64,000 nt of DNA, taken from contig OZ025781.1 in assembly GCA_964019425.1 (NCBI GenBank), forward strand, positions 496,001-560,000, in the 5' to 3' direction. A program made the position numbers and the translations under genes. The first letter of the stretch is position 1; every line of letters begins with the position of its first letter. The stretch is from Flectonema sp. DT1601 (lineage: Eukaryota). Below the pieces are notes generated by a model. The model was not told the DNA's origin. It saw only the letters and a program-made list of their open reading frames with translations, and did no database searches. This document shows, one piece after another, positions 39,910 through 64,000 of the stretch.

Positions 39910-40834
39910 AATTGTTCACAAATCACTTCTCTTGACCTTTCAGGTCTTAGTAGTGTCACCAGTATTGAAAGTTTTTTTTTGTCTAATTGTTCACAAATCA
40001 CTTCTCTTGACCTTTCAGGTATTAGTAGTGTCACCAGTATTGGAGTTTGTTTTTTGTCTAAGTGTTCAGAAATCACTTCTCTTGACCTTTCAGGTCTTAG
40101 TAGTGTCACCATTATTGAAAGTTCTTTTTTGTCTTATTGTTCTGAAATCACTTCTCTTGACCTTTCAGGTCTTAGTAGTGTCACTAGTATTGGAAATCAT
40201 TTTTTATTTCGTTTTTCAGAAATCACTTCTCTTGACCTTTCAGGTCTTTGTGGTGTCACCAGTATTGGAAGTTCTTTTTTGTCTAATTGTTCACAAATCA
40301 CTTCTCTTGACCTTTCAGGTCTTAGTAGTGTCACCAGTATTGAAAGTTTTTTTTTGTCTAAGTGTTCACAAATCACTTCTCTTGACCTTTCAGGTCTTAG
40401 TAGTGTCACCAGTATTGAAAGTTTTTTTTTGTCTAAGTGTTCACAAATCACTTCTCTTGACCTTTCAGGTCTTAGTAGTGTCACCAGTATTGAAAGTTTT
40501 TTTTTGTCTAAGTGTTCACAAATCACTTCTCTTGACCTTTCAGGTCTTAGTAGTGTCACCAGTATTGGAGATTGTTTTTTGTCTGAGTGTTCAGAAATCA
40601 CTTCTCTTGACCTTAGTAGTGTCAACTCTTGGTCTTAGTAGTGTCACCAGTATTGAAAGTTCTTTTTTGTCTAATTGTTCAAAAATCACTTCTGTTGACC
40701 TTTCAGGTCTTAGTGATGTTAAAGAAATTGGTGATGCCTTCTTCGATAATTGCAGTGCCCTGGAATCTGTTCAGCTGCCTGAAAATAATGGCGCTCTCTT
40801 TGAACCGTCTGTGAAAGCTGCGATTAATCATTAA
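39910..40834 (+). pseudogene. 3' half of the interrupted Ubl-LRR gene (~11 x 75-bp LRR units, frameshift near 40612-40635), copy 1
   Basis: CS[EQ]ITSLDLSGLSSVTSIxxxFLxx repeats. The C-terminal cap (…KEIGDAFFDNCSALESVQLP…AAINH*) is in a different frame. Confidence 0.85.
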
Positions 40835-43830
40835 ATGTAAAGTGTTGAATTGATTATTGGTTGTCATGTATTTTATATTTTTAATGTTTTGTTGTCAATA
40901 AAACGTGGTATCAACTTTTACCAAGTGACGAGACCTCGGAATCTATGATTCTCCTCGCGTCTCATCACTTCTCTTCCGATGATATTATTCTGCCAAGTTA
41001 TCTTTTTTTCCCTGAGCGTTTAGTATTACTGTTTGCGATTATACAAAAATCTACGTCTGTTTTCTGAGTAATCTTTTTTTTTGTTCCGACGAAGTCAGAG
41101 AAGAAACTATTCAGATTGAAAGTCGATATTTCTTATGGTCATGATTAATTTTCACCATGCGACAGGATTTTATCTGTGTTCAACGAAATATAAGGCTGAT
41201 CTGAATGGTTTTTTTGTTCTTATTTTGTGTCAAACCCCCGTCCTTGGATCTGACAGGTATTTTTCAGTTGAGTACTTTGATATTAATTTAATTTCAATAT
41301 CAAAATTCCATTTTTGGTAACGTGCCGCTAACAATGAATGAAGAGGGAGAAAAGCTTCTGTTTGGTTGGGTCAACCAACTGAACGTTTCTCCGCCGATAT
41401 CGGGACGGAAATTATTTACAAGATATTCGTAAAATGTATCAAGCGAAAGTTATTTTGTAGTGTTCATTCTTTTATCAGACTTTCAAGCCTTTCCCCGTTT
41501 TCAATAATAAATCTTAATCCCACCCGCCATTCCTCGTAGTGCCGATCCTCCCCAAGAGAAGATCGGCACATTAATGTTCATGAAGCAGATACTCTAAGGC
41601 AGACGTCTACTCGTCGTCAAGGGTAGACCGCCAAGTTGACGACCCTATATGTATATGATTACCGAGTGAATTGTTTTCTATCCTTCATCATCATCTTTCT
41701 TTCATCAGGTGCAAAAAGAATGCAATAGTTGATTACCGAGTACAACAAAGTTTTTATATTTATCACTCTAATTTACTAACTCAGTAGATGTAAATTCATG
41801 TAGCGTTGGTGCATCAAAGTAGTTGAGAATTTGAATCGAAACTGCCTCGAAGATTCTGTTTTTAAGTTGTCAAAGTTTCACCCCAACCTTCGGATTTAAT
41901 AAAAGAGCTGTTTTATTATTTTTAATATAAGCTAACTCATTTGTTTGAAAAAAATGATTTCCAATTAATGTCTTTGCTGAAAAAACCCGTCGATGCCACC
42001 ACCCCGACATTATTTGTTAGGATTATACAGAGCCCCCTCATGTTTTCTAACTGAATTCTGGATAACACTACCATAATTTATGTAAAGTGAGTACTCCGCT
42101 ATTAGTGTTGCTACGAACTAACAATATGGGTAGGCCATCAAATTCTGATGGATAGTTTAGGGGGGGGAGTAGGGGGGGGGTACAAGCATCGAATTTACGG
42201 AGATTTTGGGCACTTTCGGTTTTTTTCCGGAGAACAAGTTTTTTGGGCACCCAAACTATGAAAACTGCAACATATACCCCAAAAATGGGGATTGCGATCC
42301 AAAGAAACAGTTCTTCGGCACTTTAGAGCAAGTCTTTGAAAAATCTCAAAAAGTGTGGACCGTGTGGGTACCTGAGGGGGGTGAAAACAAGGGGTGTGTT
42401 AGGAGGGCTCACAAAAATTACAAGTAATTCCGTGCATTGAGCAATCCATAACCAGGGTTTCCCTCTGAGTTGAGTGGGGAATGAAATGGGAACCCAAGTT
42501 TTATTTTTATCGACCTGATTTGAACCTTAATAATATGCTCCACCAGACCGGGCTTGTTAATTCCCCCATGTCCGATGTTTAGGCTACTGGCCTTCTCTTG
42601 AGCATCCCATGTGCTCAGCTTTTGAAATTCGGCTCGAAGCTGTGCTTCTTTCTGTACAAGATAGACAGAGGACCAATCCTTGGATACAGATGGCAGATTA
42701 GTATTAGACCTTGCTGTCTAGAGGTCTTCCCTGTGAGGACGGGGTGGTACGTTCAGCCCCTGTAGCGCCTCCTGTTGTGCTTGTTCTTGCCAATTTGAAG
42801 AGGGTCGGTGGTCCTGCGTTGATGTGGTAGCCTTTGGAAGTCCGTGTACCTCTGGAATATGTTGTACGTTATCAGTAGAGTAGCATTCACGCCACTGGTT
42901 CCATCAGTTGACCAAGAACTATCAACAACACTGAATAACCTCCCCATCCCTTGAGGGGTGCAGGATGACAACGAACGCCACGGTTGTTAGCTTCATCCCA
43001 CGAACACGACGGTACCAGAGGAAGTATCATGCTGCAGCAATTTGACGGAGGGTGAGGAGGAAGCTGCTGCTTCAAGAAGTCAGGTCACCGACAGATCACC
43101 TGTGAATCCATCAAGTCGGACTGTCCTTCGAGATACAGTTGGTGACTTCGACCCGCTTCTCTTCTGTCTGCGCACCTGCGACAGCTTCAACTATGTCACT
43201 CACTCAGGACTTAGTTAGATCTCTCTGCGCCGATCCCTTCTTGCCGCAATATCTGCAGTGTAGTTACGACTCCAAGACTCTAGGAGTATGTCCCCCTCGT
43301 TTGGGTACAGTTGCAAGCGGATGTGTCTTCCGTACTTCTTCGTATGCCGCATGTACTGAAGTGTCTTGTATGCCCTGCTGGTGAGTATGGTTGGGTCTTG
43401 AGTGATGCCTTGAACGGCTTTTTGGACGGGGCATGTTGCCCTATGTCGCTGTTGCTATCTATGGCACTGCTATTTGATGCACTACCACTACAGCTGTCTT
43501 CAGGCTTATCCCTGTTTGGGGTACAGACGTGGCGCTTTGTCTATTCTGTGAGCCTTCTGTGATCACGATTCAGATACTGGACGTTTTTGGACCCCTTTCT
43601 CACGCGTATCTTGCTTCTGACTGTCCAAGTGCTGTTGAGTGACTTCAGGGATGCCTCGGGAGGTGTTTTCATGCACTCCGGGATCAATGCTCTCTTCCGC
43701 AGAATGACTTTGTGAGCTGCCCTGCAGAACGTCGTTTTCCGCTGCGTTATCCTGCCTCTTGACCTTTCAGGTCTTAGTAGTGTCACAAGTATTGGAAATC
43801 ATTTTTTTGTCTGAGTGTTCAGAAATCACT

Positions 43831-46767: not shown

Positions 46768-49700
46768 CCGGCGGAGGACGGAAGGAACTGGGCGGAGACA
46801 CGGAGACGTCTCCTGCTACAAGCTGGCGACGTTGAGAGGAACCCCGGACCGAGACCACGAATCGATGGGCTCACCGTGGGAACAATCAATGTCACCACAC
46901 TAGAAGGAAAAATAGATGCCATCACAGATCTGAACCTAGATCTGATAGCTCTACAGGAAACTTCTCTGACGGGCCCACAGCAACGCCAGATGAAAAAACA
47001 GCTCGGTGAGAGAGGATGGGAAGCGACGTTCGGGTTAGAGTGCAAATTACTAACCGATGGGCAAAAGACGTGGACGGCGGCGGGAGGCGTGGCCATCTTG
47101 ACGCGCACTGGTACACCGGTGAGAAGGATAAAACACGATCGGCTCGACAACACAGGACGATTCGTACACGCGGGAGTGTCGTACGGAAATGGCAAGGTAC
47201 TGCACGTATTCTCGTTCTACGGAGACGTACGTTCGGCGGTCTACACGGAAGAGTTGATTGCGGAGATGCTCGTGGAAGCAGCAGCTCTGGGTGATGTTCC
47301 CGTATTTATAGCGGGGGACTTCAACGTCGAAACAACGGAATCGCCGGCGCTTCTGTCGGCTTTCGCACACGGACTCTGGATAGATGCCGCCGTCTCGATG
47401 GGAAACATGACACCGACAAGCGAAGCGGGAAAAGGACTTCGTAGAATCGATGCTATTCTGATGAACCGCGGGGCGGCGACAGCAATCTCGAATGACACAA
47501 CGATTCATGTGCATAAGAGTGAGCTGATCCCGACACACAAGCCGGTCATCATTAGAAAGCTCAGCATCTCACGCTACAACGAGAAGGCTCCTAGGCTGAT
47601 AGTACCGAAACAGTTGGATACCTCCGAGACAACGGACCCGAGTGAGGGGAAGGCCGAAAGGCAACTCCACTGGACGCGAGCTGTAGCGACGGAAGATCCT
47701 GACAAGATGCTGGAGGCGCTTGGAGAGATCATCGAAAGATACCTTCTGACGGGAAAGCTGGAGATAAGTAACCCAGCCAAGTACAAGGGACGCGGGAAGA
47801 AGCGTGAGCCTGTGATGTGGACGAACGCGGCGAAACAAGACGGGAGAGGAGCGACGTGCAGGGAAACGCGGAGAAGACTGCAGAAGATACGTGTTCTGGA
47901 GGAAGTGATGAAAATCACAAAGCAACGCGATGGTCCGACGGTGCCGTCCCACGAAGTAATGAAACTCTGGAAAAAATTACGAAAACTCGATCCGACGACG
48001 GGATCCGAAATACCACAGACGGAGGAGCTTCGGATACTACTACAACAAGCGAGACAGGAGCAAGCGATAGAAAGCAAGAAGCTCCGAACTGAACGCATCC
48101 GCATGTGGAAACGGAATGTTGTCGACAATTGGAATGACGACCGCACGAAGGTTTTCCAGTGGATCAGGAACGTCGAGCAATCGAAGACTGTTCTGATGGA
48201 AAAGGCAGATGGAAGCTGGACGGCCAACTGCTCCGAGATGGATGAGGCCATGCACGCGGCATGGGACCCCATACTCAAAAAGTACTTATCAGACCCGGAA
48301 CCAGACTGGATGAAGTTCGAAGAACGGTACAGCAACTACATCGAGGAACACCCGATGCGATGCGAAGATATCACCGGGGAGGACGTTGCAAAAGCCCTCA
48401 GAAGGACTAGCTCGCGCAAAGCAGCTGGGGTAGACGGCTTCAGGATATCGGAGCTCAAGTCGCTACCGGAGGACATGATTCAGATGATAGCGGAATTCTA
48501 CAACATAGTGGAGAGAACACACTGGCCGGAAGCACTTCTCACGGCACTGGTGTCGGCCATACCCAAAGGGGCAGGGACGAAACCACTGGAGCAGAGACCC
48601 ATTACGGTGACATCCGCACTTTACAGGCTATGGGGCTGTATACGTATGGAAAAGGATGTAATGGAGTGGCAAGAGAAGTGGGCTCACGACGGGCAGTACG
48701 GCTACCGGAAGGGGAGATCTACGCTCGACCTCAGCTGGAAGATAGCACTAGACGTGGAACACGCAACTCTCTACGGAGAAGAGATTGCAGGAGTGACCAC
48801 GGACTTCAGGAAGTGTTTCGACCTGATCCCGCACGACATCCTCCTGAAATTGGTGAAGGAATTGGGCCTCGGTGATAAGATCCTGAGAACTGTGACGGAT
48901 GTCTACCGGCGACTCAGAAGGAGATTCAAGTTCCCGAGCGGCGTCGGAGAAGAATTTGCCACCACCAACGGAATACTGCAAGGATGCCCGCTCAGCGTGG
49001 TGCTCTTCAATGCGCTGAGCTCGATACTCAGCAAAGCAATCGAGAGGGAAGCCGATGTGACGCCCGGATCGTATGCGGACGACCTGACATTGTTTGGATC
49101 ACGAACGAAGCTACAAGAAGGCGTAGAAGTCGTTGCGGAGTTCTGCACCCTGACCGGACAAGAACTCGCGCCTCAGAAATGCAAGTGGTTCTCGAACAGA
49201 GACCAGGGCCAGACCAACATCACAATGGGGGACACAACACTGGACTTCGATGACAGTGTCGATATCGTGGGATGCCACCTCAGTATGAAAGGAACCACCA
49301 AGCAGATGGGGAGGATCACGGAAGAAGTGCTCGATAGAGCGAGGCGAATCCGGTTACTTCCGCTCAGATATCAAGCGAAGGAACAGATAGCTGCAGCTAG
49401 TGTCATGCCCAAGGCGCTCTTCGGAACGGCACTGTACGATCCCGATGCGACGCGACTCGGACTGCTGAGAAGAGCAATGGCAACGGGGATTTTCCGCAAA
49501 CTTGGAGGGAAAAGAACTAAGATGTCGCACACCATGGGCCTAACGCTACTCTGCAAGGGACATTGTGTGGATCCCGCGACGTACATTAGGTACAACAGAC
49601 TCCTTGCACTCACCAGAATGCTACCGAAGCTAACTGAGAGGATACGCAGGGTATGGGAACACCTGCAGGAGCACACTGAAGCGACGAGAGGACCAGTCGG

Positions 49701-51504
49701 CCTCGCCCTGAGTACTCTGAAGGAACTTGGATGGGAATGGTCAACTTTCTCGGTCTTCGAAGGTCCGGGAGGGATGACCGAACACGGAAGGCTGGATGCG
49801 GGGCGCTGGCGGCACGATGTCAGAGAGGCGTGCAGGCGTTTCACCTGGAACAAAACAATTGCGGAAACGAGACGGGTAAACCTGAGAGGTATTGAAGCGG
49901 GCATCGACCGGAAAGAGACCCTGAAGGTCCTGAAGGAAGGAAAGGGCGACCCCTACCTGCGCGGAGTAGTGAAGCACTGCCTCCTGGACAACGTGTACAC
50001 TGGCTCGATGAAGGCGGGAAACAAGAACTGCGCGCACTGCGAGGAGGTTGACGACGTAGAGAGGACGGAGACCCTCGAGCACGTGAACTGGGATTGCAGA
50101 GCTTATGACACAATACGACAGGAATATCCGCAAGTGATGCTACAAGTTCGATGCGATTGGCCCAATTGCCTGAGGCTACTCGGCATCAAGCCCGACAATG
50201 TGGAACTGCCGGCGGGGCTCACCGGAGACCTACAACGAATGTTCGCACGGATCAGGCTCCGCAGGGACGACTACCAACAACTGGAGGAGAGACGGCTGAC
50301 GGTTGTGGAATACGCTGGGAACAAGGAACCGGAAGTAGTTATGCGATACAACAACAAACTGGAAAAGTACATGCCAGTATACACCCAATGGCCCGAAGCC
50401 CTTGGATTGACCTTGTACTTAGCGCTTGCGAGCTACCTGAGGGAACTGAAGTGGCCTCGACAGCCAGACGGGGTCGGAGTCACCTTCCTGGAATTAGCGA
50501 TCGACTTCGAAGCGTATGCGGGGGTTGACATACCGACCACAGTCCACGAAGGCCACGTAGCGAAGTGCACCAAAGACAGAGCCGCCGGGAAGAAAGCTGA
50601 CGTCATGTGTGGACTGATGCTAAGATTGAACTTGGTTCACAAGCATTTAGAAGGCGAGGAACAAAGAACCTTTCCCGACTACTGCGTAGGAAGCAACAAA
50701 GCCTTACGTCCACTAGGAGCCCCGGTACTGAAAGGTTTGAAGAAACGACCAGCTTTTCTGATGGGAGACGAAACAGTAGACACAATTCGGAGGACGGTCC
50801 AGGAGGCGAACGACGGAAAAGCTGACAAAATCAGATTCGGCTTCGAGACTGAGTGCAGGCACTCGAGCGAGAGGGAAGGGAGAGCGGAGAAATGGATAAC
50901 CGCGGCACGACTTTTCCCATCAAAGGAAAAAGACGTACAGCTGAGGAGGGAGCTCTGCGAGCGAGGACCGACACGCCCGCCACCCGAGGTCGTCAAGAGA
51001 CCGGGCATCGCGGAGGGACAAGGAACGATGAACTCGACGTGCTACGGGCACTTCAAGAAGAAATGCAATAGTTGTCGACGGGCCGGAAACACCATCTACC
51101 AGTGCTGCCACAACCATCACACTCTGGGGGATGAAGATGGACAAATACCGATATGGGACTTTTGCAGCAAGCACAAGCTTACTCCATGTGCAGTCTGCAT
51201 AGTGATCGGCAGAGGATCTGAGCAATGTTGCAGAAACAGCCACCACCGATGCCGTCACCACGAGATGGCTCCCTGCAACGACTGCAAGCGGAATCCGGAT
51301 CCGGAACAACGGACTGCCACGAAATGCTGCAACAAAAAGCATCACGGGCCAATTATAAGGACGTTGACGAGGAGGGCGAAGCAGCCGACGAAGCATGATA
51401 CGCAAACCAGCACATCGCTTCTAAAATTAGGTTTCACCAAACAAATGAAACCGAAAGCAGAGGAAACCCCGGAAAGGGAACCACAGGACAAGGGGTTAAC
51501 TTAG
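46768..51504 (+). CDS. Retrotransposon ORF2: 2A peptide + APE endonuclease + reverse transcriptase + CCHC knuckle + triple Cys/His repeat
   Basis: APE motifs GTINV, IALQET, GGVAIL, GDFNV and RIDAIL; RT motifs RPITV, DFRKCFD, GILQGCPLS and YADD; C-x2-C...H-x4-C. Same frame as ORF1, no ATG before the APE domain, no RNase H recognised. Confidence 0.93.
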   Translation, partial: PAEDGRNWAETRRRLLLQAGDVERNPGPRPRIDGLTVGTINVTTLEGKIDAITDLNLDLIALQETSLTGPQQRQMKKQLGERGWEATFGLECKLLTDGQKTWTAAGGVAILTRTGTPVRRIKHDRLDNTGRFVHAGVSYGNGKVLHVFSFYGDVRSAVYTEELIAEMLVEAAALGDVPVFIAGDFNVETTESPALLSAFAHGLWIDAAVSMGNMTPTSEAGKGLRRIDAILMNRGAATAISNDTTIHVHKSELIPTHKPVIIRKLSISRYNEKAPRLIVPKQLDTSETTDPSEGKAERQLHWTRAVATEDPDKMLEALGEIIERYLLTGKLEISNPAKYKGRGKKREPVMWTNAAKQDGRGATCRETRRRLQKIRVLEEVMKITKQRDGPTVPSHEVMKLWKKLRKLDPTTGSEIPQTEELRILLQQARQEQAIESKKLRTERIRMWKRNVVDNWNDDRTKVFQWIRNVEQSKTVLMEKADGSWTANCSEMDEAMHAAWDPILKKYLSDPEPDWMKFEERYSNYIEEHPMRCEDITGEDVAKALRRTSSRKAAGVDGFRISELKSLPEDMIQMIAEFYNIVERTHWPEALLTALVSAIPKGAGTKPLEQRPITVTSALYRLWGCIRMEKDVMEWQEKWAHDGQYGYRKGRSTLDLSWKIALDVEHATLYGEEIAGVTTDFRKCFDLIPHDILLKLVKELGLGDKILRTVTDVYRRLRRRFKFPSGVGEEFATTNGILQGCPLSVVLFNALSSILSKAIEREADVTPGSYADDLTLFGSRTKLQEGVEVVAEFCTLTGQELAPQKCKWFSNRDQGQTNITMGDTTLDFDDSVDIVGCHLSMKGTTKQMGRITEEVLDRARRIRLLPLRYQAKEQIAAASVMPKALFGTALYDPDATRLGLLRRAMATGIFRKLGGKRTKMSHTMGLTLLCKGHCVDPATYIRYNRLLALTRMLPKLTERIRRVWEHLQEHTEATRGPVGLALSTLKELGWEWSTFSVFEGPGGMTEHGRLDAGRWRHDVREACRRFTWNKTIAETRRVNLRGIEAGIDRKETLKVLKEGKGDPYLRGVVKHCLLDNVYTGSMKAGNKNCAHCEEVDDVERTETLEHVNWDCRAYDTIRQEYPQVMLQVRCDWPNCLRLLGIKPDNVELPAGLTGDLQRMFARIRLRRDDYQQLEERRLTVVEYAGNKEPEVVMRYNNKLEKYMPVYTQWPEALGLTLYLALASYLRELKWPRQPDGVGVTFLELAIDFEAYAGVDIPTTVHEGHVAKCTKDRAAGKKADVMCGLMLRLNLVHKHLEGEEQRTFPDYCVGSNKALRPLGAPVLKGLKKRPAFLMGDETVDTIRRTVQEANDGKADKIRFGFETECRHSSEREGRAEKWITAARLFPSKEKDVQLRRELCERGPTRPPPEVVKRPGIAEGQGTMNSTCYGHFKKKCNSCRRAGNTIYQCCHNHHTLGDEDGQIPIWDFCSKHKLTPCAVCIVIGRGSEQCCRNSHHRCRHHEMAPCNDCKRNPDPEQRTATKCCNKKHHGPIIRTLTRRAKQPTKHDTQTSTSLLKLGFTKQMKPKAEETPEREPQDKGLT
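46789..46851 (+). other. 2A (StopGo) ribosome-skipping peptide WAETRRRLLLQAGDVERNPG|P (copy B)
   Basis: Exact D[VI]ExNPGP consensus at 46828-46851, preceded by LLxQAG, immediately before APE motif I. Confidence 0.92.
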
Positions 51505-54500
51505 GTTGGCCGAACCAGTGCCTCGTCATCTCACCGTGCTAGCAAGCCTGAATGACAGCACTCAAAATGGTACATATAATTGTTCACAAATCACTTCTCT
51601 TGACCTTTCAGGTCTTAGTAGTGTCACCAGTATTGAAAGTTTTTTTTTGTCTAATTGTTCACAAATCACTTCTCTTGACCTTTCAGGTATTAGTAGTGTC
51701 ACCAGTATTGGAGTTTGTTTTTTGTCTAAGTGTTCAGAAATCACTTCTCTTGACCTTTCAGGTCTTAGTAGTGTCACCATTATTGAAAGTTCTTTTTTGT
51801 CTTATTGTTCTGAAATCACTTCTCTTGACCTTTCAGGTCTTAGTAGTGTCACTAGTATTGGAAATCATTTTTTATTTCGTTTTTCAGAAATCACTTCTCT
51901 TGACCTTTCAGGTCTTTGTGGTGTCACCAGTATTGGAAGTTCTTTTTTGTCTAATTGTTCACAAATCACTTCTCTTGACCTTTCAGGTCTTAGTAGTGTC
52001 ACCAGTATTGAAAGTTTTTTTTTGTCTAAGTGTTCACAAATCACTTCTCTTGACCTTTCAGGTCTTAGTAGTGTCACCAGTATTGAAAGTTTTTTTTTGT
52101 CTAAGTGTTCACAAATCACTTCTCTTGACCTTTCAGGTCTTAGTAGTGTCACCAGTATTGAAAGTTTTTTTTTGTCTAAGTGTTCACAAATCACTTCTCT
52201 TGACCTTTCAGGTCTTAGTAGTGTCACCAGTATTGGAGATTGTTTTTTGTCTGAGTGTTCAGAAATCACTTCTCTTGACCTTAGTAGTGTCAACTCTTGG
52301 TCTTAGTAGTGTCACCAGTATTGAAAGTTCTTTTTTGTCTAATTGTTCAAAAATCACTTCTGTTGACCTTTCAGGTCTTAGTGATGTTAAAGAAATTGGT
52401 GATGCCTTCTTCGATAATTGCAGTGCCCTGGAATCTGTTCAGCTGCCTGAAAATAATGGCGCTCTCTTTGAACCGTCTGTGAAAGCTGCGATTAATCATT
52501 AAATGTAAAGTGTTGAATTGATTATTGGTTGTCATGTATTTTATATTTTTAATGTTTTGTTGTCAATAAAACGTGGTATCAACTTTTACCAAGTGACGAG
52601 ACCTCGGAATCTATGATTCTCCTCGCGTCTCATCACTTCTCTTCCGATGATATTATTCTGCCAAGTTATCTTTTTTTCCCTGAGCGTTTAGTATTACTGT
52701 TTGCGATTATACAAAAATCTACGTCTGTTTTCTGAGTAATCTTTTTTTTTGTTCCGACGAAGTCAGAGAAGAAACTATTCAGATTGAAAGTCGATATTTC
52801 TTATGGTCATGATTAATTTTCACCATGCGACAGGATTTTATCTGTGTTCAACGAAATATAAGGCTGATCTGAATGGTTTTTTTGTTCTTATTTTGTGTCA
52901 AACCCCCGTCCTTGGATCTGACAGGTATTTTTCAGTTGAGTACTTTGATATTAATTTAATTTCAATATCAAAATTCCATTTTTGGTAACGTGCCGCTAAC
53001 AATGAATGAAGAGGGAGAAAAGCTTCTGTTTGGTTGGGTCAACCAACTGAACGTTTCTCCGCCGATATCGGGACGGAAATTATTTACAAGATATTCGTAA
53101 AATGTATCAAGCGAAAGTTATTTTGTAGTGTTCATTCTTTTATCAGACTTTCAAGCCTTTCCCCGTTTTCAATAATAAATCTTAATCCCACCCGCCATTC
53201 CTCGTAGTGCCGATCCTCCCCAAGAGAAGATCGGCACATTAATGTTCATGAAGCAGATACTCTAAGGCAGACGTCTACTCGTCGTCAAGGGTAGACCGCC
53301 AAGTTGACGACCCTATATGTATATGATTACCGAGTGAATTGTTTTCTATCCTTCATCATCATCTTTCTTTCATCAGGTGCAAAAAGAATGCAATAGTTGA
53401 TTACCGAGTACAACAAAGTTTTTATATTTATCACTCTAATTTACTAACTCAGTAGATGTAAATTCATGTAGCGTTGGTGCATCAAAGTAGTTGAGAATTT
53501 GAATCGAAACTGCCTCGAAGATTCTGTTTTTAAGTTGTCAAAGTTTCACCCCAACCTTCGGATTTAATAAAAGAGCTGTTTTATTATTTTTAATATAAGC
53601 TAACTCATTTGTTTGAAAAAAATGATTTCCAATTAATGTCTTTGCTGAAAAAACCCGTCGATGCCACCACCCCGACATTATTTGTTAGGATTATACAGAG
53701 CCCCCTCATGTTTTCTAACTGAATTCTGGATAACACTACCATAATTTATGTAAAGTGAGTACTCCGCTATTAGTGTTGCTACGAACTAACAATATGGGTA
53801 GGCCATCAAATTCTGATGGATAGTTTAGGGGGGGGAGTAGGGGGGGGGTACAAGCATCGAATTTACGGAGATTTTGGGCACTTTCGGTTTTTTTCCGGAG
53901 AACAAGTTTTTTGGGCACCCAAACTATGAAAACTGCAACATATACCCCAAAAATGGGGATTGCGATCCAAAGAAACAGTTCTTCGGCACTTTAGAGCAAG
54001 TCTTTGAAAAATCTCAAAAAGTGTGGACCGTGTGGGTACCTGAGGGGGGTGAAAACAAGGGGTGTGTTAGGAGGGCTCACAAAAATTACAAGTAATTCCG
54101 TGCATTGAGCAATCCATAACCAGGGTTTCCCTCTGAGTTGAGTGGGGAATGAAATGGGAACCCAAGTTTTATTTTTATCGACCTGATTTGAACCTTAATA
54201 ATATGCTCCACCAGACCGGGCTTGTTAATTCCCCCATGTCCGATGTTTAGGCTACTGGCCTTCTCTTGAGCATCCCATGTGCTCAGCTTTTGAAATTCGG
54301 CTCGAAGCTGTGCTTCTTTCTGTACAAGATAGACAGAGGACCAATCCTTGGATACAGATGGCAGATTAGTATTAGACCTTGCTGTCTAGAGGTCTTCCCT
54401 GTGAGGACGGGGTGGTACGTTCAGCCCCTGTAGCGCCTCCTGTTGTGCTTGTTCTTGCCAATTTGAAGAGGGTCGGTGGTCCTGCGTTGATGTGGTAGCC

Positions 54501-55424
54501 TTTGGAAGTCCGTGTACCTCTGGAATATGTTGTACGTTATCAGTAGAGTAGCATTCACGCCACTGGTTCCATCAGTTGACCAAGAACTATCAACAACACT
54601 GAATAACCTCCCCATCCCTTGAGGGGTGCAGGATGACAACGAACGCCACGGTTGTTAGCTTCATCCCACGAGCACGACGGTACCAGAGGAAGTATCATGC
54701 TGCAGCAATTTGACGGAGGGTGAGGAGGAAGCTGCTGCTTCAAGAAGTCAGGTCACCGACAGATCACCTGTGAATCCATCAAGTCGGACTGTCCTTCGAG
54801 ATACAGTTGGTGACTTCGACCCGCTTCTCTTCTGTCTGCGCACCTGCGACAGCTTCAACTATGTCACTCACTCAGGACTTAGTTAGATCTCTCTGCGCCG
54901 ATCCCTTCTTGCCGCAATATCTGCAGTGTAGTTACGACTCCAAGACTCTAGGAGTATGTCCCCCTCGTTTGGGTACAGTTGCAAGCGGATGTGTCTTCCG
55001 TACTTCTTCGTATGCCGCATGTACTGAAGTGTCTTGTATGCCCTGCTGGTGAGTATGGTTGGGTCTTGAGTGATGCCTTGAACGGCTTTTTGGACGGGGC
55101 ATGTTGCCCTATGTCGCTGTTGCTATCTATGGCACTGCTATTTGATGCACTACCACTACAGCTGTCTTCAGGCTTATCCCTGTTTGGGGTACAGACGTGG
55201 CGCTTTGTCTATTCTGTGAGCCTTCTGTGATCACGATTCAGATACTGGACGTTTTTGGACCCCTTTCTCACGCGTATCTTGCTTCTGACTGTCCAAGTGC
55301 TGTTGAGTGACTTCAGGGATGCCTCGGGAGGTGTTTTCATGCACTCCGGGATCAATGCTCTCTTCCGCAGAATGACTTTGTGAGCTGCCCTGCAGAACGT
55401 CGTTTTCCGCTGCGTTATCCTGCC
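48620..55424. repeat. Segmental duplication, copy 2 (pairs with 36952-43756)
   Basis: Offset 11668, near-complete identity. Confidence 0.95.
51578..52502 (+). pseudogene. 3' half of the interrupted Ubl-LRR gene, copy 2
   Basis: Identical to 39910-40834, including the frameshift. Confidence 0.85.
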
Positions 55425-55559: not shown

Positions 55560-58500
55560 TAAAAAAAAATTATTTGAAGGTGCATTTCACAGGCCTCAAA
55601 ATTGGACCCCCAGGTACCACGCGGTCCACACTTTTTGAGATTTTTCATTCCTTTGCCGAAATCAGCCAAATCGAGGTTTTTTCGGCCCCGAAATCACATT
55701 TTTGGGGGTTCTGATGGGGTCCTGGGTATTTTTTGCCCCCGGGAAGGTTATATTTACCAAAATTCGGAAAAAGTACTTTATCAAAAAGTAAAAAATTTCT
55801 AGCTTAACCAACATTGCGAATACTTCCTAACTTCATTGCATTCTTTGTTCCTGTTGTCGTATTATTGGTTGGGTGTAGTTGATATCTGTTAGAGTTATTT
55901 TATTGTTGTTTCAGGGACCCTTCTGGGAGCTCAGTACATCATTTTATATTTTAGTCCTCTCTCTTTGAATATTAACTCTGGTTACGTTACATTCAGGTTT
56001 GGTTGGTTGTAAGTTGCTTTTTAAAAGTTTAAATATTTTAATTCGAATTCAGAACAAACATAAAATGAAGTTGTCGCTCGCCCTTTTGTCGCTCCCTTGT
56101 TTGGCTGCCGGACTTACGGCCTCGGCCGAAGACGTTGCCCACCTTGCGTTTGACTCGTTCAAGAGCCAGTACAACAAGAAGTACGTCAGCGAGGTTGAGG
56201 AAGCGAAGAGATACGAAGCCTTCAAGGCGTCGCTCGACAGAGTTGCGGCCTCTGGAAACCCAACTCATGGAATCACGAAGTTCAGTGACATGACTCCTGA
56301 GGAGTTCAAGGCAACGTACTTGAGCGCCCGTCCTCTTCAGAAGAGCAGCCCACCTGTTGCGGAATGGGATGGTGAGTGCACTGCTTGCAAGAGATTCCCT
56401 GAACTCAGCAACCTGAAGAACGCAACCTCATTCGACTGGACTACCAAGGGAGCAGTGACCAAGGTGAAGAACCAGGGACAGTGTGGATCTTGCTGGAGTT
56501 TCGGAACTACCGGAGACATCGAGGGGACCTGGTTCTTGGCTGGAAACGACCTCACTTCCCTCTCTGAGCAAGAGTTGGTGTCGTGTGACAAGACCGACGA
56601 TGGCTGTGGTGGAGGTCTTCAAGAGACAGCTTTCGCTTGGGTGATCAAGCAGGGAGGACTGACCACTGAAGCTAACTACCCATACAACTCAGGTGGTGGC
56701 CGTGTAGATGCTTGCGAGGAGGCGAAGAAGAAGCCAATCGCCGCTTCAATCAAGACCTGGTACCAGGTGTCGAAGAACGCTGGCGGGGAATCGAAGATTG
56801 AATCGCAGCTTCCCCACGTTGGACCGATCACCATCGGAATCAACGCCACCCCTATGCAGGACTACAAGGGTGGAGTTGACAACCCAAGATTGTGCTCTGG
56901 ACTTCAGCTCGACCACGCTGTGTTGATTGTTGGATTCGGAACTGACAACGGTGTTGACTACTGGAAGATTAAGAACTCATGGGCAGCTGACTGGGGAGAG
57001 GAGGGTTACTACAGAATCGTTCGTGGTCACAACAAGTGTGGTCTGGCGAACGACGCTGTCCACAGTGTTGCCGGTAAATAGGCTGTGGGGTTGTATTATA
57101 ATTATTTCGTGTTTACACGTTTTCTCATCCATCTTATTTAGTGTGAAATGTTTGACGAAAGAACAACAACCAGTGAAAATGGATGTAAGTTCAGAACATG
57201 GCAGCCATTTCTTATATAAATAGTTCTAGAATGACTGCCACCTATTCCTCTCTTGTCTAATATAGGAATAGCCTGTGTGTCGTATCGCACAGCATATTAT
57301 CTATACTTTTATTTTTGAATCTTATAAAGAGGTTTTTGGACATCGATTCTGTTCAAGTCCTGCTTACGAGTGAATGATGTATCTTGTTTGTGCTATTAAA
57401 TGGTGACTGGAGTTCTTCTACAAAAGCATCTGGTGCCTAACTGTTCGATATTCACGTACTTTTCCTTGTTTAAAGAAGTGTCTGTTGTCAAGGATTAGTA
57501 AACAAAGAATCTTTGAACTGCTCTCTGTATTGTCGTGGTGGTCTTAACCGTATAGCATTATTGTATTCCATCAAACAGTTAACCGAACCACACACAAAAT
57601 GAAGTTGTCGCTCGCCCTTTTGTCGTTAAGGGAAGTAGCACAGTACTGAGGAGGTGGATGAAAGATTGCTCTTGCGGAATTACAGAATTCAATTATTAAG
57701 TTATCGATTCTGTGTTTTCTAAGTCGGAATGTGTTCTTAAGTTAGTTAATTTATTTATTATTTACTGCAACAGGATGTATGACAACAATCAAAACTGTTC
57801 TTTAGTTGCCTTTGCTAGACAGATACCTCAATCCCGTATAATTTACAGGGGAAATTCGGTGTATTTTGGGCCACTTTTTGTTGGCCTTTTTTTTGGTGCA
57901 TTTTGGGGCTGGGTAAGGGGAACGGTCCGAAGAAAAGATTATTTTTAATCATAGCCCGAAACCAACTTGTTTGTTGTCCTACGAACTTTTGCATTCGATT
58001 GAATTTTCCCGCCCTCTCCCCTTCTTTTGACTGATAACCATTAATACTAACACATTGGTATTCCGCGTTCCCTGATATATTTATATAGGGGGACTGTGTT
58101 AAATGGTAAAAGAAATAACCATGTTGACGTGGTTCCCTTGGCTGAGAAGGGCAAACGCGATGAGTAGGACAGGCCAGACACCGCAGTGTCTCCCTTGCTT
58201 TCTTCGCTGAAGAGGGCTGGGTAAGGGGAATGGTCCGAAGAAAAGATTATTTTTAATCATAGCCCGAAACCAACTTGTTTGTTGTCCTACGAAATTTTGC
58301 TTTTTTTTTGATTGTATTAATACTAACTCATTTGTTTGAAAAAATGATTTCCAATTAATGTCTTTGCTGAAAAAACCCGTCGATGCCACCACCCCGACAT
58401 TATTTGTTAGGATTATACAGCCCCCTCATGTTTTCTAACTGAATTCTGGATAACACTACCATAATTTATGTAAAGTGAGTACTCCGCTATTAGTGTTACT

Positions 58501-59389
58501 ACGAACTAGCAATATGGGTAGGCCATCAAATTCTGATGGATAGATTAGGGGGGGGGGGTGTGTCCTGTCGGTTCCGTATGTGAAATCTATTACAATTAAT
58601 GAAGACTTGGTTGTGGATTTAATTATTAATTTATTAGAGGATTCAGACATTCTAGTTTTTAGAGAAGAGCAAGACGGGTCATGTTATTTTATAGGAAATT
58701 ACAACTACAGAATATGTTGCACTATTCAGGAATCGAAGCTGCTTTTTCAGTTTTTCCTTATTACTTTACGATTGTTGCCGTCGTTTTGGAACGCTTCATC
58801 AATATTAATAAACCTTTTCGTCTTTCAGTAGATTCCAAAAAAAAAGGAAACAAATAAAAACAACAACAGCAATGCAAGTTTTTGTGACGTGTCCGGATTT
58901 GGGATTCCCTGCGGTGTCAGTCACGGTTGGTGCTGATTCTGTTGTGAGCGACGTGTTGACGGAAGCGGCTGGCGAGTGGGATGTCGATGCGGAGGAAGTT
59001 GTACTGTTGTTCGCTGGTGATGTCCTTTGTGAAAGTGAGCGGCTGGCAGATCATGGAGTGGGTGGAGACAGCGAGTTGGAAATGCGGAAGAAGCTGATTC
59101 GGATCTTCGGTAAAAACTGGTTTGTTGATGATAGAAAAAGGGAGATGCTGCTTCTTTGGATTAGAGACCACAATACGGAGGATTTATATCTGGACACTCC
59201 CACATTCTTGGAGGATGGTTGCCTCACTGTTGACAAAAGATTGCTTCCTTCAGATGCCAAACGGATTTCCTTCCGCCATTCAAACTCCAACAGCACGGTC
59301 ATCTCACAAGTTACTTCTATTGGAGATGACTTTTTATATGATTGTTCAGAAATCACTTCTCTTGATCTTTCAAGTATTAGTAGTGTCAC
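55560..59389. repeat. Segmental duplication, copy 2 (pairs with 32841-36670)
   Basis: Offset 22719, near-complete identity. Confidence 0.95.
56065..57081 (+). CDS. Papain-family (C1A) cysteine protease, copy 2
   Basis: Protein identical to 33346-34362. Confidence 0.95.
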   Translation: MKLSLALLSLPCLAAGLTASAEDVAHLAFDSFKSQYNKKYVSEVEEAKRYEAFKASLDRVAASGNPTHGITKFSDMTPEEFKATYLSARPLQKSSPPVAEWDGECTACKRFPELSNLKNATSFDWTTKGAVTKVKNQGQCGSCWSFGTTGDIEGTWFLAGNDLTSLSEQELVSCDKTDDGCGGGLQETAFAWVIKQGGLTTEANYPYNSGGGRVDACEEAKKKPIAASIKTWYQVSKNAGGESKIESQLPHVGPITIGINATPMQDYKGGVDNPRLCSGLQLDHAVLIVGFGTDNGVDYWKIKNSWAADWGEEGYYRIVRGHNKCGLANDAVHSVAGK

Positions 59390-62300
59390 CAGTATTGGAG
59401 TTTGTTTTTTGTCTGAGTGTTCAGAAATCACTTCTCTTGACCTTTCAGGTCTTAGTAGTGTCACTAGTATTGGAAATCATTTTTTATTTCGTTGTTCAGA
59501 AATCACTTCTCTTGACCTTTCAGGTCTTAGTAGTGTCACCAGTATTAAAAGTTCTTTTTTGTCTTATTGTTCAGAAATCACTTCTCTTGACCTTTCAGGT
59601 CTTAGTAGTGTCACCAGTATTGGATATCAATTTTTGTCTAATTGTTCAGAAATCACTTCTGTTGACCTTTCAGGTCTTAGTAGTGTCACTAGTATTGGAA
59701 ATGATTTTTTATTTCGTTGTTCAGAAATCACTTCTCTTGACCTTTCAGGTCTTAGTAGTGTCACCAGTATTAAAAGTTCTTTTTTGTCTTATTGTTCAGA
59801 AATCACTTCTCTTGACCTTTCAGGTCTTAGTAGTGTCACCAGTATTGGATATCAATTTTTGTCTAATTGTTCAGAAATCACTTCTGTTGACCTTTCAGGT
59901 CTTAGTAGTGTCACCAGTATTGGAGATTGTTTTTTGTCTTATTGTTCAGAAATCACTTGGGATCACGACACCTGCCTCCTCGCGGCGGTCCCGGACGACT
60001 TCGATAGGGGTCGACAAAACAGTGTCAAACACAAGAGATGCCAACAACATCAAAACCATCAAAACCAGCTACAACATCCAGAGCATACAAACCCTGGCTT
60101 GTCAAATAAAGAACGGAATAAACTAGCCCATGCCTTGAATGGCAATGGTGGACCAGGAAAGGACAGCAGAGACCGACGCCCGCGAGACGATACTCGCGAC
60201 AGGGACGAAAACCGTCCAAACAAGGAGGAACGTCGCATAGCGAAGCTCGAGAAAGAGAAACTCGACTCGCTAGACGAGATAGAGGAAGAGAAGCAACGAC
60301 TGGGGCAGCAGAGAATGGCCATGGAACAGCACCACCACCAGAAGGAAACCAACCTTCAAGGACAAGAAAAACAGTTGGAACAGCAACGCCAACACCAACA
60401 ACAAGAACTGCAAAGTCAGTACCACCAACAACAGCAGCAACTGCAAAGCCATCATCAGCTGAAGGAAACGGAAAGTTTCCAGAAGGAGCAAAACCTACAG
60501 GCTCAACTCAAGGAGCGACACCAGCACCAACAGAAGGAATTGGAGAAGCAATACCGCCAACAACAACAGCAACTGGAAAGCCAACAGCAGAAGAAGGACG
60601 CCGAGTCTGAACAGCAAACACATCTGACTCGGTTACAACTACAGAAGGAAAAGGAATCCTTCCAGACAGAGAAGGAACGGCTCCACCTCCAGCTGGATCA
60701 GCAGTTGAAGAACGAGAAGGAGCACCTCCACCAACAACTCCAACAGAAGGAAGACGAGGTTCGTAAAGAAAAGTTAGCAGAGAGAATAGAACTCCAACAA
60801 CTACGAGATGAACTAACTCAACAAGAACAGAACATCCAACGACGTGAGGAAGAGGTGAACCGAGGACAGCACCAACTACACCAACAACAACAACAACTAG
60901 AGCAGCAGCAACAGCAATCGCAACATCAGCAACTGGAACTACAACAACAACGGCAACAACAGCAACAGCAACAACAGCATCAACAACTGGAACTACAACA
61001 ACAACAACAACAACAGCACCAACAACAGCATCAACAACTGGAACTGGAACAACAACAACTACAACAGCAACAGCAACTGCAACAACATCGACAACCGCAA
61101 CAACAACCGCAACAGCAACCCGTACACTACATGCAACATCAACCGTATGCAACGTACGACACCTACGCCCAGCAGCAGCAGTCTTCCCACTACGAAGGGC
61201 TACAACAGGAACTGAAGCGCGAAAGAGAGGAGAAGAGCGAACTACGCGAGATGCTCCGAACTCTCCAACAACAACTGGACGGATTGAGAGAAGAACTCAA
61301 GGCCCAACATGCTGAGGCGAAGAGGCAGCAGGAAACGGCGGGACGAGAAGCGAGAGAGATGCAAGAACGTTTCTTGCTAGAACTCGAAGCGGAACGGGTC
61401 CAGATCAGAGGGCTCAACTCGCTGAGAGAAGAGGAAGAGGAACTTCAGATGGACACCACCCCTGATCAGGAAGCAAACACGGAAGTGAAGCAAACGCCAC
61501 CGGTGAAGCTGCCCCAAGACGGTATGAGGGAGCTGGACGCCTCACGCAAGAAGCTGATGAAAGAAATCAATGAAGGGCAGGTAGCCGGACGATCGGCCAT
61601 CCAAGAGCAGATGGTCCGAGAGGCCGGGAGACTGGCGCAGACTCAGAAGAGCTGGGAGAACGCAGCACGCAAGGAGCGATCCAGGGTGGATAACCTCTCG
61701 CTGGCACCGGAATACTGGCCAGAGGGAATGGCGATCACGAAGGAGCAGTACGACGCCGGTGCAAAGGGAGTACACCTCACCACCAGAGAGGAGGCAAGGA
61801 AGAGGATGTCGGGAACACCTCCGGGAGCCTGGGAAACGTTATCCCTGGTAACCCTGGAACCACCATCAAGCACGGCCCAAAAAGTACAAGTGGTACTGAA
61901 GGAGACGACGAGCGACGGCGAGAAGAGAATTCTCAAGCAGCTCTGGATGACAACACTGGGAAGAGTGGTTGTACCATCCGGAACAGACGTCGTGCGGACG
62001 GAAAGCACGAGGGAGATGGTTGTCCGAGTGGACAAAAAATGGTCCGGAGAGAAGAGATGGTCGGAAGTGAAGCGCTCCCCGTTCAGAGCAACGGAGGAAT
62101 TGAAGAAGATGCCGGGGTACGTCGATACGTACAACCCGCGGATCGGAGACCAGAGCGTGACCGTGATGCTCAGGGTGAAGGTAGCCGAAGTGAAGAACTT
62201 CCTCCGAGAATCGGGGAAGGACGGCGTCTTCACCAAGGAAAAGGATCCGAGAGAGGAACGAGCAGTGAAGGCGGCGGTCATTTGGCTACCGAAGGACGAG

Positions 62301-62981
62301 ACGCTCGGAATCGCTCGGGACAAGGCTGTAGAAGTCGATGGAGGGCTGGGACTCGTGGTAAACGAACACGGACTCGGGCTTCGAGTGACCAGCTGGCAGG
62401 AAACGGCGGCGAGGGAGAAACTGCACCTGCCGGCTAAGCTACCGGAAACAAAGATCACGGGGATACCGATCGGCACAACCACCGACGAAGCGATCAAGTG
62501 GCTGATCACGAAGGAAGGCTGGGAAGTGAGGAAGACGAAGGAAGGCGTACGGAACGGCATGCGATGGATGGTCGTCCGCGGTCCGGTGAGAACGCAGGAA
62601 ACCATCACAGTGGATGGCGTCCTGTGCATGGTGGAGGCTGGGAAACAGAAGGAGGAAGTCGACCCGAAACGGAAGGAGACCAAACGCCCGAATGCGACAC
62701 CGACGAAACCAGAGAAAAGGCGTGACCCGACGGAGGGAACGGGAGGAAAGTGGTACACTCGATTGGAGTTCATCGAGTTTCATGGGAAGAAGAAGGGACA
62801 ACGCCTATGGTTAGAAGCCAGCAACCCAACACCAACTACGACGGCACCTACGAAGGCAGCGACCGCAACGACAACAGCGAAAAAGGAGCCCAAGTCGACA
62901 AAAAAGAAGGAGAACAGCTCAGTGGACGAGAGATTGGACCGACTGGAACGTCTACTGATGGCGTTCATGGAACGGAATTGA
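58872..62981 (+). CDS. Chimeric ORF: Ubl + 8 LRRs (58872-59958) fused in frame to retrotransposon ORF1 (59959-62981)
   Basis: Open 1369-codon frame with junction ...FLSYCSEIT|WDHDTCLL... Confidence 0.85.
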   Translation: MQVFVTCPDLGFPAVSVTVGADSVVSDVLTEAAGEWDVDAEEVVLLFAGDVLCESERLADHGVGGDSELEMRKKLIRIFGKNWFVDDRKREMLLLWIRDHNTEDLYLDTPTFLEDGCLTVDKRLLPSDAKRISFRHSNSNSTVISQVTSIGDDFLYDCSEITSLDLSSISSVTSIGVCFLSECSEITSLDLSGLSSVTSIGNHFLFRCSEITSLDLSGLSSVTSIKSSFLSYCSEITSLDLSGLSSVTSIGYQFLSNCSEITSVDLSGLSSVTSIGNDFLFRCSEITSLDLSGLSSVTSIKSSFLSYCSEITSLDLSGLSSVTSIGYQFLSNCSEITSVDLSGLSSVTSIGDCFLSYCSEITWDHDTCLLAAVPDDFDRGRQNSVKHKRCQQHQNHQNQLQHPEHTNPGLSNKERNKLAHALNGNGGPGKDSRDRRPRDDTRDRDENRPNKEERRIAKLEKEKLDSLDEIEEEKQRLGQQRMAMEQHHHQKETNLQGQEKQLEQQRQHQQQELQSQYHQQQQQLQSHHQLKETESFQKEQNLQAQLKERHQHQQKELEKQYRQQQQQLESQQQKKDAESEQQTHLTRLQLQKEKESFQTEKERLHLQLDQQLKNEKEHLHQQLQQKEDEVRKEKLAERIELQQLRDELTQQEQNIQRREEEVNRGQHQLHQQQQQLEQQQQQSQHQQLELQQQRQQQQQQQQHQQLELQQQQQQQHQQQHQQLELEQQQLQQQQQLQQHRQPQQQPQQQPVHYMQHQPYATYDTYAQQQQSSHYEGLQQELKREREEKSELREMLRTLQQQLDGLREELKAQHAEAKRQQETAGREAREMQERFLLELEAERVQIRGLNSLREEEEELQMDTTPDQEANTEVKQTPPVKLPQDGMRELDASRKKLMKEINEGQVAGRSAIQEQMVREAGRLAQTQKSWENAARKERSRVDNLSLAPEYWPEGMAITKEQYDAGAKGVHLTTREEARKRMSGTPPGAWETLSLVTLEPPSSTAQKVQVVLKETTSDGEKRILKQLWMTTLGRVVVPSGTDVVRTESTREMVVRVDKKWSGEKRWSEVKRSPFRATEELKKMPGYVDTYNPRIGDQSVTVMLRVKVAEVKNFLRESGKDGVFTKEKDPREERAVKAAVIWLPKDETLGIARDKAVEVDGGLGLVVNEHGLGLRVTSWQETAAREKLHLPAKLPETKITGIPIGTTTDEAIKWLITKEGWEVRKTKEGVRNGMRWMVVRGPVRTQETITVDGVLCMVEAGKQKEEVDPKRKETKRPNATPTKPEKRRDPTEGTGGKWYTRLEFIEFHGKKKGQRLWLEASNPTPTTTAPTKAATATTTAKKEPKSTKKKENSSVDERLDRLERLLMAFMERN
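59959..60026 (+). ncRNA. Predicted HDV-like ribozyme (copy C)
   Basis: Core identical to copy B. Two changes lie near the 3' strand of P2 (GACAC/GUGUC retained). Confidence 0.82.
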
Positions 62982-64000
62982 CCGGCGGAGGACGGAAGGA
63001 ACTGGGCGGAGACACGGAGACGTCTCCTGCTACAAGCTGGCGACGTTGAGAGGAACCCCGGACCGAGACCACGAATCGATGGGCTCACCGTGGGAACAAT
63101 CAATGTCACCACACTAGAAGGAAAAATAGATGCCATCACAGATCTGAACCTAGATCTGATAGCTCTACAGGAAACTTCTCTGACGGGCCCACAGCAACGC
63201 CAGATGAAAAAACAGCTCGGTGAGAGAGGATGGGAAGCGACGTTCGGGTTAGAGTGCAAATTACTAACCGATGGGCAAAAGACGTGGACGGCGGCGGGAG
63301 GCGTGGCCATCTTGACGCGCACTGGTACACCGGTGAGAAGGATAAAACACGATCGGCTCGACAACACGGGACGATTCGTACACGCGGGAGTGTCGTACGG
63401 AAATGGCAAGGTACTGCACGTTTTCTCGTTCTACGGAGACGTACGTTCGGCGGTCTACACGGAAGAGTTGATTGCGGAGATGCTCGTGGAAGCAGCAGCT
63501 CTGGGTGATGTTCCCGTATTTATAGCGGGGGACTTCAACGTCGAAACAACGGAATCGCCGGCGCTTCTGTCGGCTTTCGCACACGGACTCTGGATAGATG
63601 CCGCCGTCTCGATGGGAAACATGACACCGACAAGCGAAGCGGGAAAAGGACTTCGTAGAATCGATGCGATTCTGATGAACCGCGGGGCGGCGACAGCAAT
63701 CTCGAATGACACAACGATCCATGTGCATAAGAGTGAGCTGATCCCGACACACAAGCCGGTCATCATTAGAAAGCTCAACATCTCACGCTACAACGAGAAG
63801 GCTCCTAGGCTGATAGTACCGAAACAGTTGGATACCTCCGAGACAACGGACCCGAGTGAGGGGAAGGCCGAAAGGCAACTCCACTGGACGCGAGCTGTAG
63901 CGACGGAAGATCCTGACAAGATGCTGGAGGCGCTTGGAGAGATCATCGAAAGATACCTTCTGACGGGAAAGCTGGAGATAAGTAACCCAGCCAAGTACAA
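62982..64000 (+). CDS. Retrotransposon ORF2, 5' part (2A at 63042-63065 + APE endonuclease), truncated by the window
   Basis: Same TGA-2A-GTINV arrangement as copy B (offset 16214). Confidence 0.9.

Follow-up and report, generated by a model that had tools for sequence, protein, structure and literature searches.

Introduction

Long interspersed nuclear elements (LINEs) that insert at a specific sequence have so far been known from RNA genes, satellites, telomeres and a hot spot in the RHS genes of trypanosomes. Their targets have been catalogued (PMC5035012). The RHS genes attract ingi and RIME, which produce split pseudogenes (PMC7563717); L1Tc carries a 5′ ribozyme like that of hepatitis delta virus (HDV), a 2A sequence and a target-site duplication (TSD; PMC5814959, PMC4035085), and 2A sequences are reported for elements with an apurinic/apyrimidinic endonuclease (APE; PMC3708506). 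In Tetrahymena, 76% of the copies of REP colocalise with leucine-rich repeat (LRR) units, with introns as the favoured target (PMC6564038). Diplonema papillatum has many LINE-like open reading frames (ORFs) that are left uncharacterised, and the term 'leucine-rich' does not occur in the main text of that report (PMC10161547). We describe a 64,000-nucleotide stretch of Flectonema sp. DT1601 (contig OZ025781.1, positions 496,001 to 560,000), referred to as the window, in which a retrotransposon that lacks long terminal repeats (non-LTR), family A, interrupts genes encoding a ubiquitin-like (Ubl) domain followed by LRR units.

Our reading, to which we give a probability of roughly 75%, is that the window samples a large Ubl-LRR family of the BspA/TpLRR type. 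Unequal crossing-over and gene conversion would be the likely means by which its 75-base units come, go and are mixed, with selection favouring new residues at four loop positions. A non-LTR element sits at one fixed nucleotide of the unit, likely because its own endonuclease and reverse transcriptase (RT) target this site. Insertions and deletions of units, a triplet duplication, mosaic units, an excess of amino-acid change at unit positions 8, 9, 12 and 13, and a shared insertion junction are all directly visible. A first-pass annotation, made from the letters alone, had proposed that LRR cassettes are shuffled between near-identical gene copies.

Repeat arrays of the Ubl-LRR gene copies

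The gene and its fragments lie as follows:

58872..59958, + strand: Ubl-LRR gene copy 3, 5′ part, with ubiquitin-like domain, linker and nine LRR units (59304-59958), cut by the element
36153..36945, + strand: Ubl-LRR gene copy 1, 5′ part, with five LRR units
39909..40834, + strand: 3′ LRR block with C-terminal cap, frameshifted near 40615-40636; it begins with a TSD-like 20-base copy of the target
51577..52502, + strand: 3′ LRR block, second copy
43757..43831, + strand: orphan single LRR unit before the full-length element, with a chimeric patch (left half GNH, right half SE, one extra T)

The variable patches of copy 1 (36660-36945) read GNHFLFR, GSSFLSN, KSSFLSY, GYQFLSN, and those of copy 3 (59379-59958) read GVCFLSE, GNHFLFR, KSSFLSY, GYQFLSN, GNDFLFR, KSSFLSY, GYQFLSN, GDCFLSY. 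The first-pass annotation had every one of these at its place and in its order; it omitted a GDDFLYD unit that both copies carry upstream of their arrays. The near-identity that it saw upstream is also borne out. Positions 32830-36945 align with 55549-59664 without gaps at 27 mismatches in 4116 bases, a block that contains the start of the Ubl-LRR gene and, ahead of it, a cysteine protease gene; 4 of the mismatches fall at the left edge, 2 in the Ubl domain and 21 in LRR units 2-3.

A table of distances between units places shared units, at 0 differences, in shifted positions, unit 1 of copy 1 being the same as unit 2 of copy 3. The GSSFLSN unit of copy 1 is one base from a 3′-block unit that likewise stands behind GNHFLFR, and the GVCFLSE unit of copy 3 is one base from each of two 3′-block units. 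Units 2-4 of copy 3 are repeated as units 5-7 with 1 difference, 55 bases of each unit being compared. The loss of one unit from each copy plus this triplet duplication explains how copies 1 and 3 differ, with the order of shared units kept and no inversion. The shuffling that had been noted is real, and consists mostly of ordinary coding-minisatellite turnover. One extra unit also separates the members of a paralogue pair, P0009/P0107.

Across 22 units (16 of them distinct) 54 of the 75 positions are invariant, which agrees with the earlier estimate of about 54 nearly invariant nucleotides; this set excludes the second copy of the 3′ block, the first units common to both gene copies, the cap and orphan units and one incomplete unit. 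Recombination among units had been suggested as well, and it is supported because incompatibility between informative sites (18 of 120 pairs) increases with distance, from 0/23 through 2/28 and 8/48 to 8/21, to which recurrent mutation could contribute.

A hypervariable patch probably under selection

Change is concentrated in the patch. In its five codons the proportion of differing non-synonymous sites (pN) is 0.41 and that of synonymous sites (pS) 0.04, compared with 0.04 and 0.06 in the framework. This check of dN/dS type, run on the window units, finds patch variation beyond that of a neutral minisatellite, as the first-pass annotation had supposed. At unit positions 8, 9, 12 and 13 the minimum number of changes is 16 non-synonymous and 0 synonymous, against 3 synonymous in the whole unit (P 3e-5). 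When 29 changes were placed uniformly, clustering of this kind arose in about 1 of 1000 trials (P about 0.001), in a simulation that allows for the post-hoc choice of positions.

In 206 units from 50 other family proteins, too, entropy is highest at these four positions, which are rich in Y, F, N, D, S, H, R and C; these units are pattern matches, and 8 more distant relatives were left out. The patches form a small reusable set within the window, as had been noted. Family-wide they do not: the 206 units carry 178 distinct patches, a large vocabulary that includes 0 of the window's 13. We also compared 13 disjoint pairs of close relatives whose N-termini agree to 90% or more; one identical pair and the pair from the window are among them. 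With best-matching units used, differences amount to 55/1556 (3.5%) in the N-terminus, 111/923 (12%) in the framework and 117/355 (33%) in the patch. Since the patch diverges even between best-matching units, it changes by substitution as well as by unit exchange.

The assignment to BspA/TpLRR-type repeats behind a ubiquitin-like domain holds up. Copy 3 scores 90.6 bits with Pfam LRR_5 (cut-off 27.7). An AlphaFold2 model of the intact paralogue P0004 (predicted local distance difference test score 91.9) gave TpLRR 6mlx as the top Foldseek match (E 1.3e-4, a modest template-modelling score of 0.52 on the target) and ubiquitin as the best match for the N-terminus. In this model the long strand runs through the SLD/SVD positions and a short bridge lies at SI, with the patch in the loop between them, away from the concave strand; the patch had indeed been predicted to lie outside the canonical strand. 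No signal peptide or membrane segment is evident in 4/4 intact paralogues, with a maximal 19-residue hydropathy of 1.2-1.7 by a crude test rather than a dedicated predictor, and for this reason any binding by these proteins would be intracellular. On the model, the patch may be a putative binding surface under diversifying selection in an intracellular protein.

The closest named relative of the LRR protein, from Flectonema neradi, is 34% identical. A second Ubl and LRR_5 subfamily (P0045, P0050, P0288-P0290), on long contigs, combines a ubiquitin-like domain of another kind with this variable xxFLxx patch. Searches with the family alignment gave 430 pattern matches in JGI metagenomes and 221 in viral contigs, 0 of them confirmed in either, and similarity searches with the Ubl-linker and with the C-terminal Cys/His region of the element's second ORF (ORF2) gave scores of at most 0.81, too low to be of help.

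Insertion at one nucleotide of the repeat unit

The elements and their parts are the following:

43832..51576, + strand: full-length element with ribozyme, ORF1 to 46767, ORF2 at 46768-51504 (APE endonuclease, RT, three C-terminal Cys/His motifs) and a 72-base 3′ end that lacks poly(A)
59959..64000, + strand: family A non-LTR retrotransposon with complete 5′ end, extending past the window edge
36952..39908, + strand: 5′-truncated element, RT domain to 3′ end; its left junction lies 6 bases beyond the usual site and contains a 6-base filler
59959..60026, + strand: predicted HDV-like ribozyme whose G1 is the element's first base (Rfam RF00094 on top, below cut-off; helices by inspection)
59959..62981, + strand: ORF1, Q/E-rich, first ATG at 60315, with a TGA end in frame with ORF2; no Pfam family
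63024..63065, + strand: 2A-like motif with which ORF2 starts, DVERNPGP (second occurrence 46810-46851); it fits the consensus DxExNPGP as that report gives it (PMC5814959)

Each LRR array in the window is cut short by a retroelement. Both complete 5′ junctions in the window (59959 and 43832) directly follow CAGAAATCACTT. The 20 bases after each element 3′ end are a copy of the stretch leading up to the 5′ insertion site, and the window has no other element ends on either strand. In the standard model of target-primed reverse transcription the 3′ junction marks the first nick. Because the 3′ junction falls at patch codons 12/13, the first nick would lie there, about 20 bases upstream of the 5′ junction. 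The first-pass annotation had the endonuclease possibly nicking the constant part of the unit, where only the 5′ junction lies. The copy-3 junction recurs in a 1070-base contig of run X1, with 49 bases upstream and 0 differences over 511 bases, the first 460 of the element included, X1 being possibly the source sample. Contigs of that run also cover 6.2 kb of the element body at 99%, and none reaches across the array. From runs X2 and X3 come only small shares in short pieces.

The wider family consists of 53 proteins from ENA contigs, probably of the same or a conspecific assembly (element proteins 99% identical). The insertion register is interrupted in 12 of them, 34 look capped, and 7 end otherwise, 4 of the latter one or two codons at most from the insertion site. 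Three of the 12 breaks read xIT-WDHDT into ORF1, 1 is an off-frame reading of the same DNA, 7 read x[ILN]T-WVTKLG-stop and 1 is probably an off-frame version of the latter. The residues before the junction are gene-specific (CSQIT, CEQIT, CPQLT, CSRIT, CSRNT, CERIT, CSEIT), and the interrupted unit stands early or late in the array. These residues match the unit style of the gene in which they stand, and the interrupted unit is not the same throughout, so that the family junctions read as separate insertions. Because of the match in unit style we rejected a single insertion spread by ectopic recombination.

A search blind to LRRs, made with the C-terminal half of ORF1, found a six-member family-A cluster in which both members with a 5′ end are LRR fusions and the other four start inside ORF1. 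In P0287 the element is joined to an LRR unit about 2 bases off the usual site. Behind WVTKLG there is probably a second element, family B, at the same site, its first bases also GG. As far as these sequences go, independent copies share one nucleotide, with 2/2 complete 5′ ends in the window and 12/53 family proteins in one register, which points to sequence-specific insertion.

Anatomy of the family-A element

One ORF holds both the APE endonuclease (PF03372) and the RT (PF00078), and its best sequence match in the PDB is human L1 ORF2. The closest named relative of ORF2 is from Flectonema neradi (63%), followed by Diplonema ambulator, Rhynchopus euleeides and D. japonicum; all are diplonemids, which makes a diplonemid host probable. 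Helices P1, P1.1, P2, P3/L3 and P4 of an HDV-like ribozyme can be made out by inspection in the first 68 bases. The element has no Pfam match to RNase H at E 0.05 and no run of A at its 3′ end.

In family A the first ATG lies 356 bases into the element, downstream of a motif common to related ORF1 families, and several junctions fuse Ubl-LRR in frame to this AUG-less start of ORF1. Its ribozyme region has no stop in the host frame, so that at copy 3 a Ubl-LRR-ORF1 frame of 1369 codons extends to 62978. The related ORF1 families (about 60% identity) have a starting Met of their own and no LRR was seen with them. P0080-P0083 and further cluster members represent at least 3 more element families with such a related ORF1 (about 60%), starting MPPRGG or MPSRGG, one of which may be the WVTKLG element.

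At 46765-46851 and 62979-63065 the ORF1 TGA is followed by C and the frame continues into ORF2, where no Met occurs before the APE domain and the first one falls within it. The 2A-like motif stands about 20 codons after the TGA, in an arrangement that would allow read-through and ribosome skipping. No stable structure follows the TGA (z 0.39), so read-through is favoured by frame and context only. ORF2 residues ~1415-1525 (window ~51010-51345) form three repeats of C-x2-H-x4-C-x2-C...CC-x3-HH, also present in diplonemid relatives and matching no Pfam family; this triple motif is a candidate target-recognition domain. In the closest ORF2 relative (P0112, Flectonema neradi) the place of the 2A motif is taken by an N-terminal extension of about 180 residues, which contains Cys and His motifs and gives the impression that it might be a protease.

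Duplicated segments and neighbouring genes

Two duplicated features flank or enter the arrays:

48620..55424, + strand: 6.8-kb segment made of the element 3′ half, an LRR 3′ block and 2.9 kb of downstream DNA, with a copy at 36952-43756 within an LRR array
56065..57081, + strand: papain-family cysteine protease gene, duplicated together with the Ubl-LRR gene (other copy 33346-34362)

The two copies of the 6.8-kb segment differ by 1 mismatch in 6805 bases, so the two 3′ LRR blocks are one duplicated sequence. The duplicate at 36952-43756 sits at most 6 bases from the element target, with filler bases at its left end, and both junctions of the duplication are non-homologous. It could be a truncated insertion with 3′ transduction or a duplication templated by repair; misassembly is less likely.

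Short local duplications flank the Ubl-LRR gene (34870-34906, 35187-35276/35495-35584, 35580-35836/41907-42167), among them 37 bases that repeat the beginning of the protease gene and a block of 257 bases that occurs on either side of the LRR gene. The spacer at 42200-43756 and 53860-55549 is richer in GC, lacks a long ORF, ends in a run of A (55561) and is possibly a decayed element; a tblastn comparison of 42200-43756 with the retrieved RT proteins gave no match.

The window is otherwise intron-poor eukaryotic DNA in which V-ATPase, PIG-M, COPI alpha and papain protease genes were recognised. The V-ATPase a subunit (1908-4466) is split across two ORFs in different frames, as by an intron or a frameshift. 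At 6841-12264 there is a 1807-residue protein with a CAP domain and Cys-rich repeats of 297 bases, and 105-base repeats lie at 12374-12649.

Discussion

The steps by which the element may live in this gene family can be outlined. All junctions are in the sense direction, and the element would therefore be co-transcribed with its host gene. The 5′ HDV-like ribozyme would free the element RNA at its exact first base. Translation of ORF1 would then begin at a codon other than AUG or yield a Ubl-LRR-ORF1 fusion, and ORF2 would be made through read-through of one TGA followed by 2A skipping. Target-primed reverse transcription would begin at the nick about 20 bases upstream of the 5′ junction, at patch codons 12/13. 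Insertion would split the gene, whose flanking LRR units could then recombine. The element is best read as a parasite exploiting a redundant multicopy target. We hypothesize that nicking could also promote unit shuffling.

Several observations weigh against the reading we favour. The target flanks are imperfect, with 3/20 bases differing at the full-length copy and 1/20 with a 6-base shift at the truncated copy, in a rearranged locus; neither a pair of empty and filled sites nor a perfect TSD was found. The element search supplied two of the 12 junction proteins, which puts the unbiased count at 10/51, and the 'capped' state was judged by a loose pattern. The evidence from paralogues is at the protein level, family-A elements at non-LRR sites could escape protein searches, and family B is known from six codons only. 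RF00094 is the best Rfam match of the ribozyme at 20.6 bits (E 0.89), far below cut-off, and the region folds no better than shuffles (z about -0.1, an uninformative value since this folding allows no pseudoknots). Substitution counts are small, gene conversion can depress pS, and the synonymous deficit over the whole unit is not significant (3 of 29 changes, P 0.07).

An active role for the element seems to us unlikely. The LINE family would in that case be a diversity engine for an intracellular LRR recognition family: a nick at patch codons 12/13 would prime the copying of units from read-through or host LRR RNA, or 3′ blocks would be transduced, the element would be translated as a Ubl-LRR-ORF1 fusion, and recombination of flanking units would later remove the element in frame, leaving a rearranged array. 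It fits that the 3′ junction is at the patch edge, from which cDNA would extend over codons 12 to 7, that a 6.8-kb piece comprising the element 3′ half and ten LRR units is embedded in a different array, no more than 6 bases from the target, that the flanks are not a perfect duplication, and that close pairs with and without an insertion exist (P0027/P0108). The 3′ end of the duplicated piece, however, is not at the usual nick position, arrays adjoining elements are all broken here, and the variable patch is also present in distant relatives for which insertions are not known. Nor is variation raised at silent sites close to the nick, with 1 synonymous change in 3.6 sites over codons 7-13, which argues against local mutagenesis. 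Adenine-specific mutagenesis like that of diversity-generating retroelements was not found in the patch: the silent third-position A of codon 7 is fixed in 22/22 units, the patch varies at C, G and T columns too, and the element RT is LINE-type.

We think it quite improbable that the arrays are drifting neutrally in dead or dying copies, with a patch that varies merely because it is unconstrained. Every window array is interrupted, the 3′ block is frameshifted, unequal crossing-over suffices for the changes in order, and the whole-unit test stops at P 0.07; yet the non-synonymous rate in the patch is about 8 times the synonymous rate, and 34/53 paralogues look intact while varying at the same positions. 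That the order differences and the 6.8-kb duplication are assembly artefacts is something we would hold very unlikely. The single mismatch in 6805 bases invites this suspicion, as does the absence of read-level data spanning the array, where X1 contigs reach at most 139 bases. The units nevertheless differ in frame and exactly match units elsewhere, insertions and deletions of units recur in other paralogues, the duplication has non-homologous junctions, one with filler bases, and the copy-3 junction agrees throughout with the contig from X1, a run that may be the source sample.

Comparison with known systems

Diplonemids are abundant marine protists that host bacteria and meet viruses. The window points to an undescribed hypervariable intracellular LRR family in this group. 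A LINE target that is precise to the nucleotide, lies in a coding repeat both degenerate and positively selected, and probably serves two element families stands out from the targets named at the outset. It offers a test case for how an APE-type element recognises its target, and for whether such elements feed the diversification of gene families or merely exploit it. In open-access full text no description surfaced of such a LINE target or of such a hypervariable LRR family; subscription journals, Repbase and supplements were outside this scope, and the supplement of PMC10161547 could cover related Diplonema elements.

R2/R1/Tx1/Utopia-type elements share a fixed junction in a multicopy target with the window element, and R2 has a 5′ HDV-like ribozyme (PMC5035012). 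The Trichomonas and Entamoeba BspA/TpLRR families resemble the window family in having LRR_5 repeats expanded in a protist (PMC2843621). The window family differs from them in its N-terminal ubiquitin-like domain, its 25-residue units and a framework kept homogeneous in concert at the DNA level, with no signal or membrane segment evident. The R2 endonuclease is restriction-like, whereas that of the window element is of the APE type. TcTREZO also lies mostly within one variable multigene family of a euglenozoan, in MASP pseudogenes (PMC5814959). It is composite, and is not presented in the relevant part of that report as an autonomous APE-RT LINE of the present anatomy.

Closer in anatomy are ingi/RIME of Trypanosoma brucei and L1Tc/NARTc of T. 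cruzi, likewise euglenozoan APE-RT elements with a 2A sequence and a 5′ HDV-like ribozyme, which is only predicted here. This comparison is by features. Unlike L1Tc/ingi, the window element has a long Q-rich ORF1 set off by a TGA, three C-terminal Cys/His motifs and in-frame host fusions, and has neither an RNase H match nor poly(A). Its TSD-like overlap is about 20 bases, against 9 bases reported for L1Tc. As with ingi/L1Tc in the RHS genes, one site in a multigene protein family is used and split pseudogenes result; unlike RHS, the target is a tandem coding repeat with several sites per gene.

The Tetrahymena REP is, like the window element, a LINE tied to fast-evolving LRR units that expand by unequal crossing-over, and the help of retrotransposons in shuffling has been proposed there (PMC6564038). 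REP enters introns of LRR genes with 90-bp exons and is eliminated from the somatic nucleus, whereas here, without introns, insertion takes place at a fixed nucleotide inside a 75-base BspA-type coding unit and the gene is broken. By analogy, then, the LRR-targeting element appears to work like the RHS hot spot and to resemble the REP-LRR association, and to differ from both in target, anatomy and host fusions.

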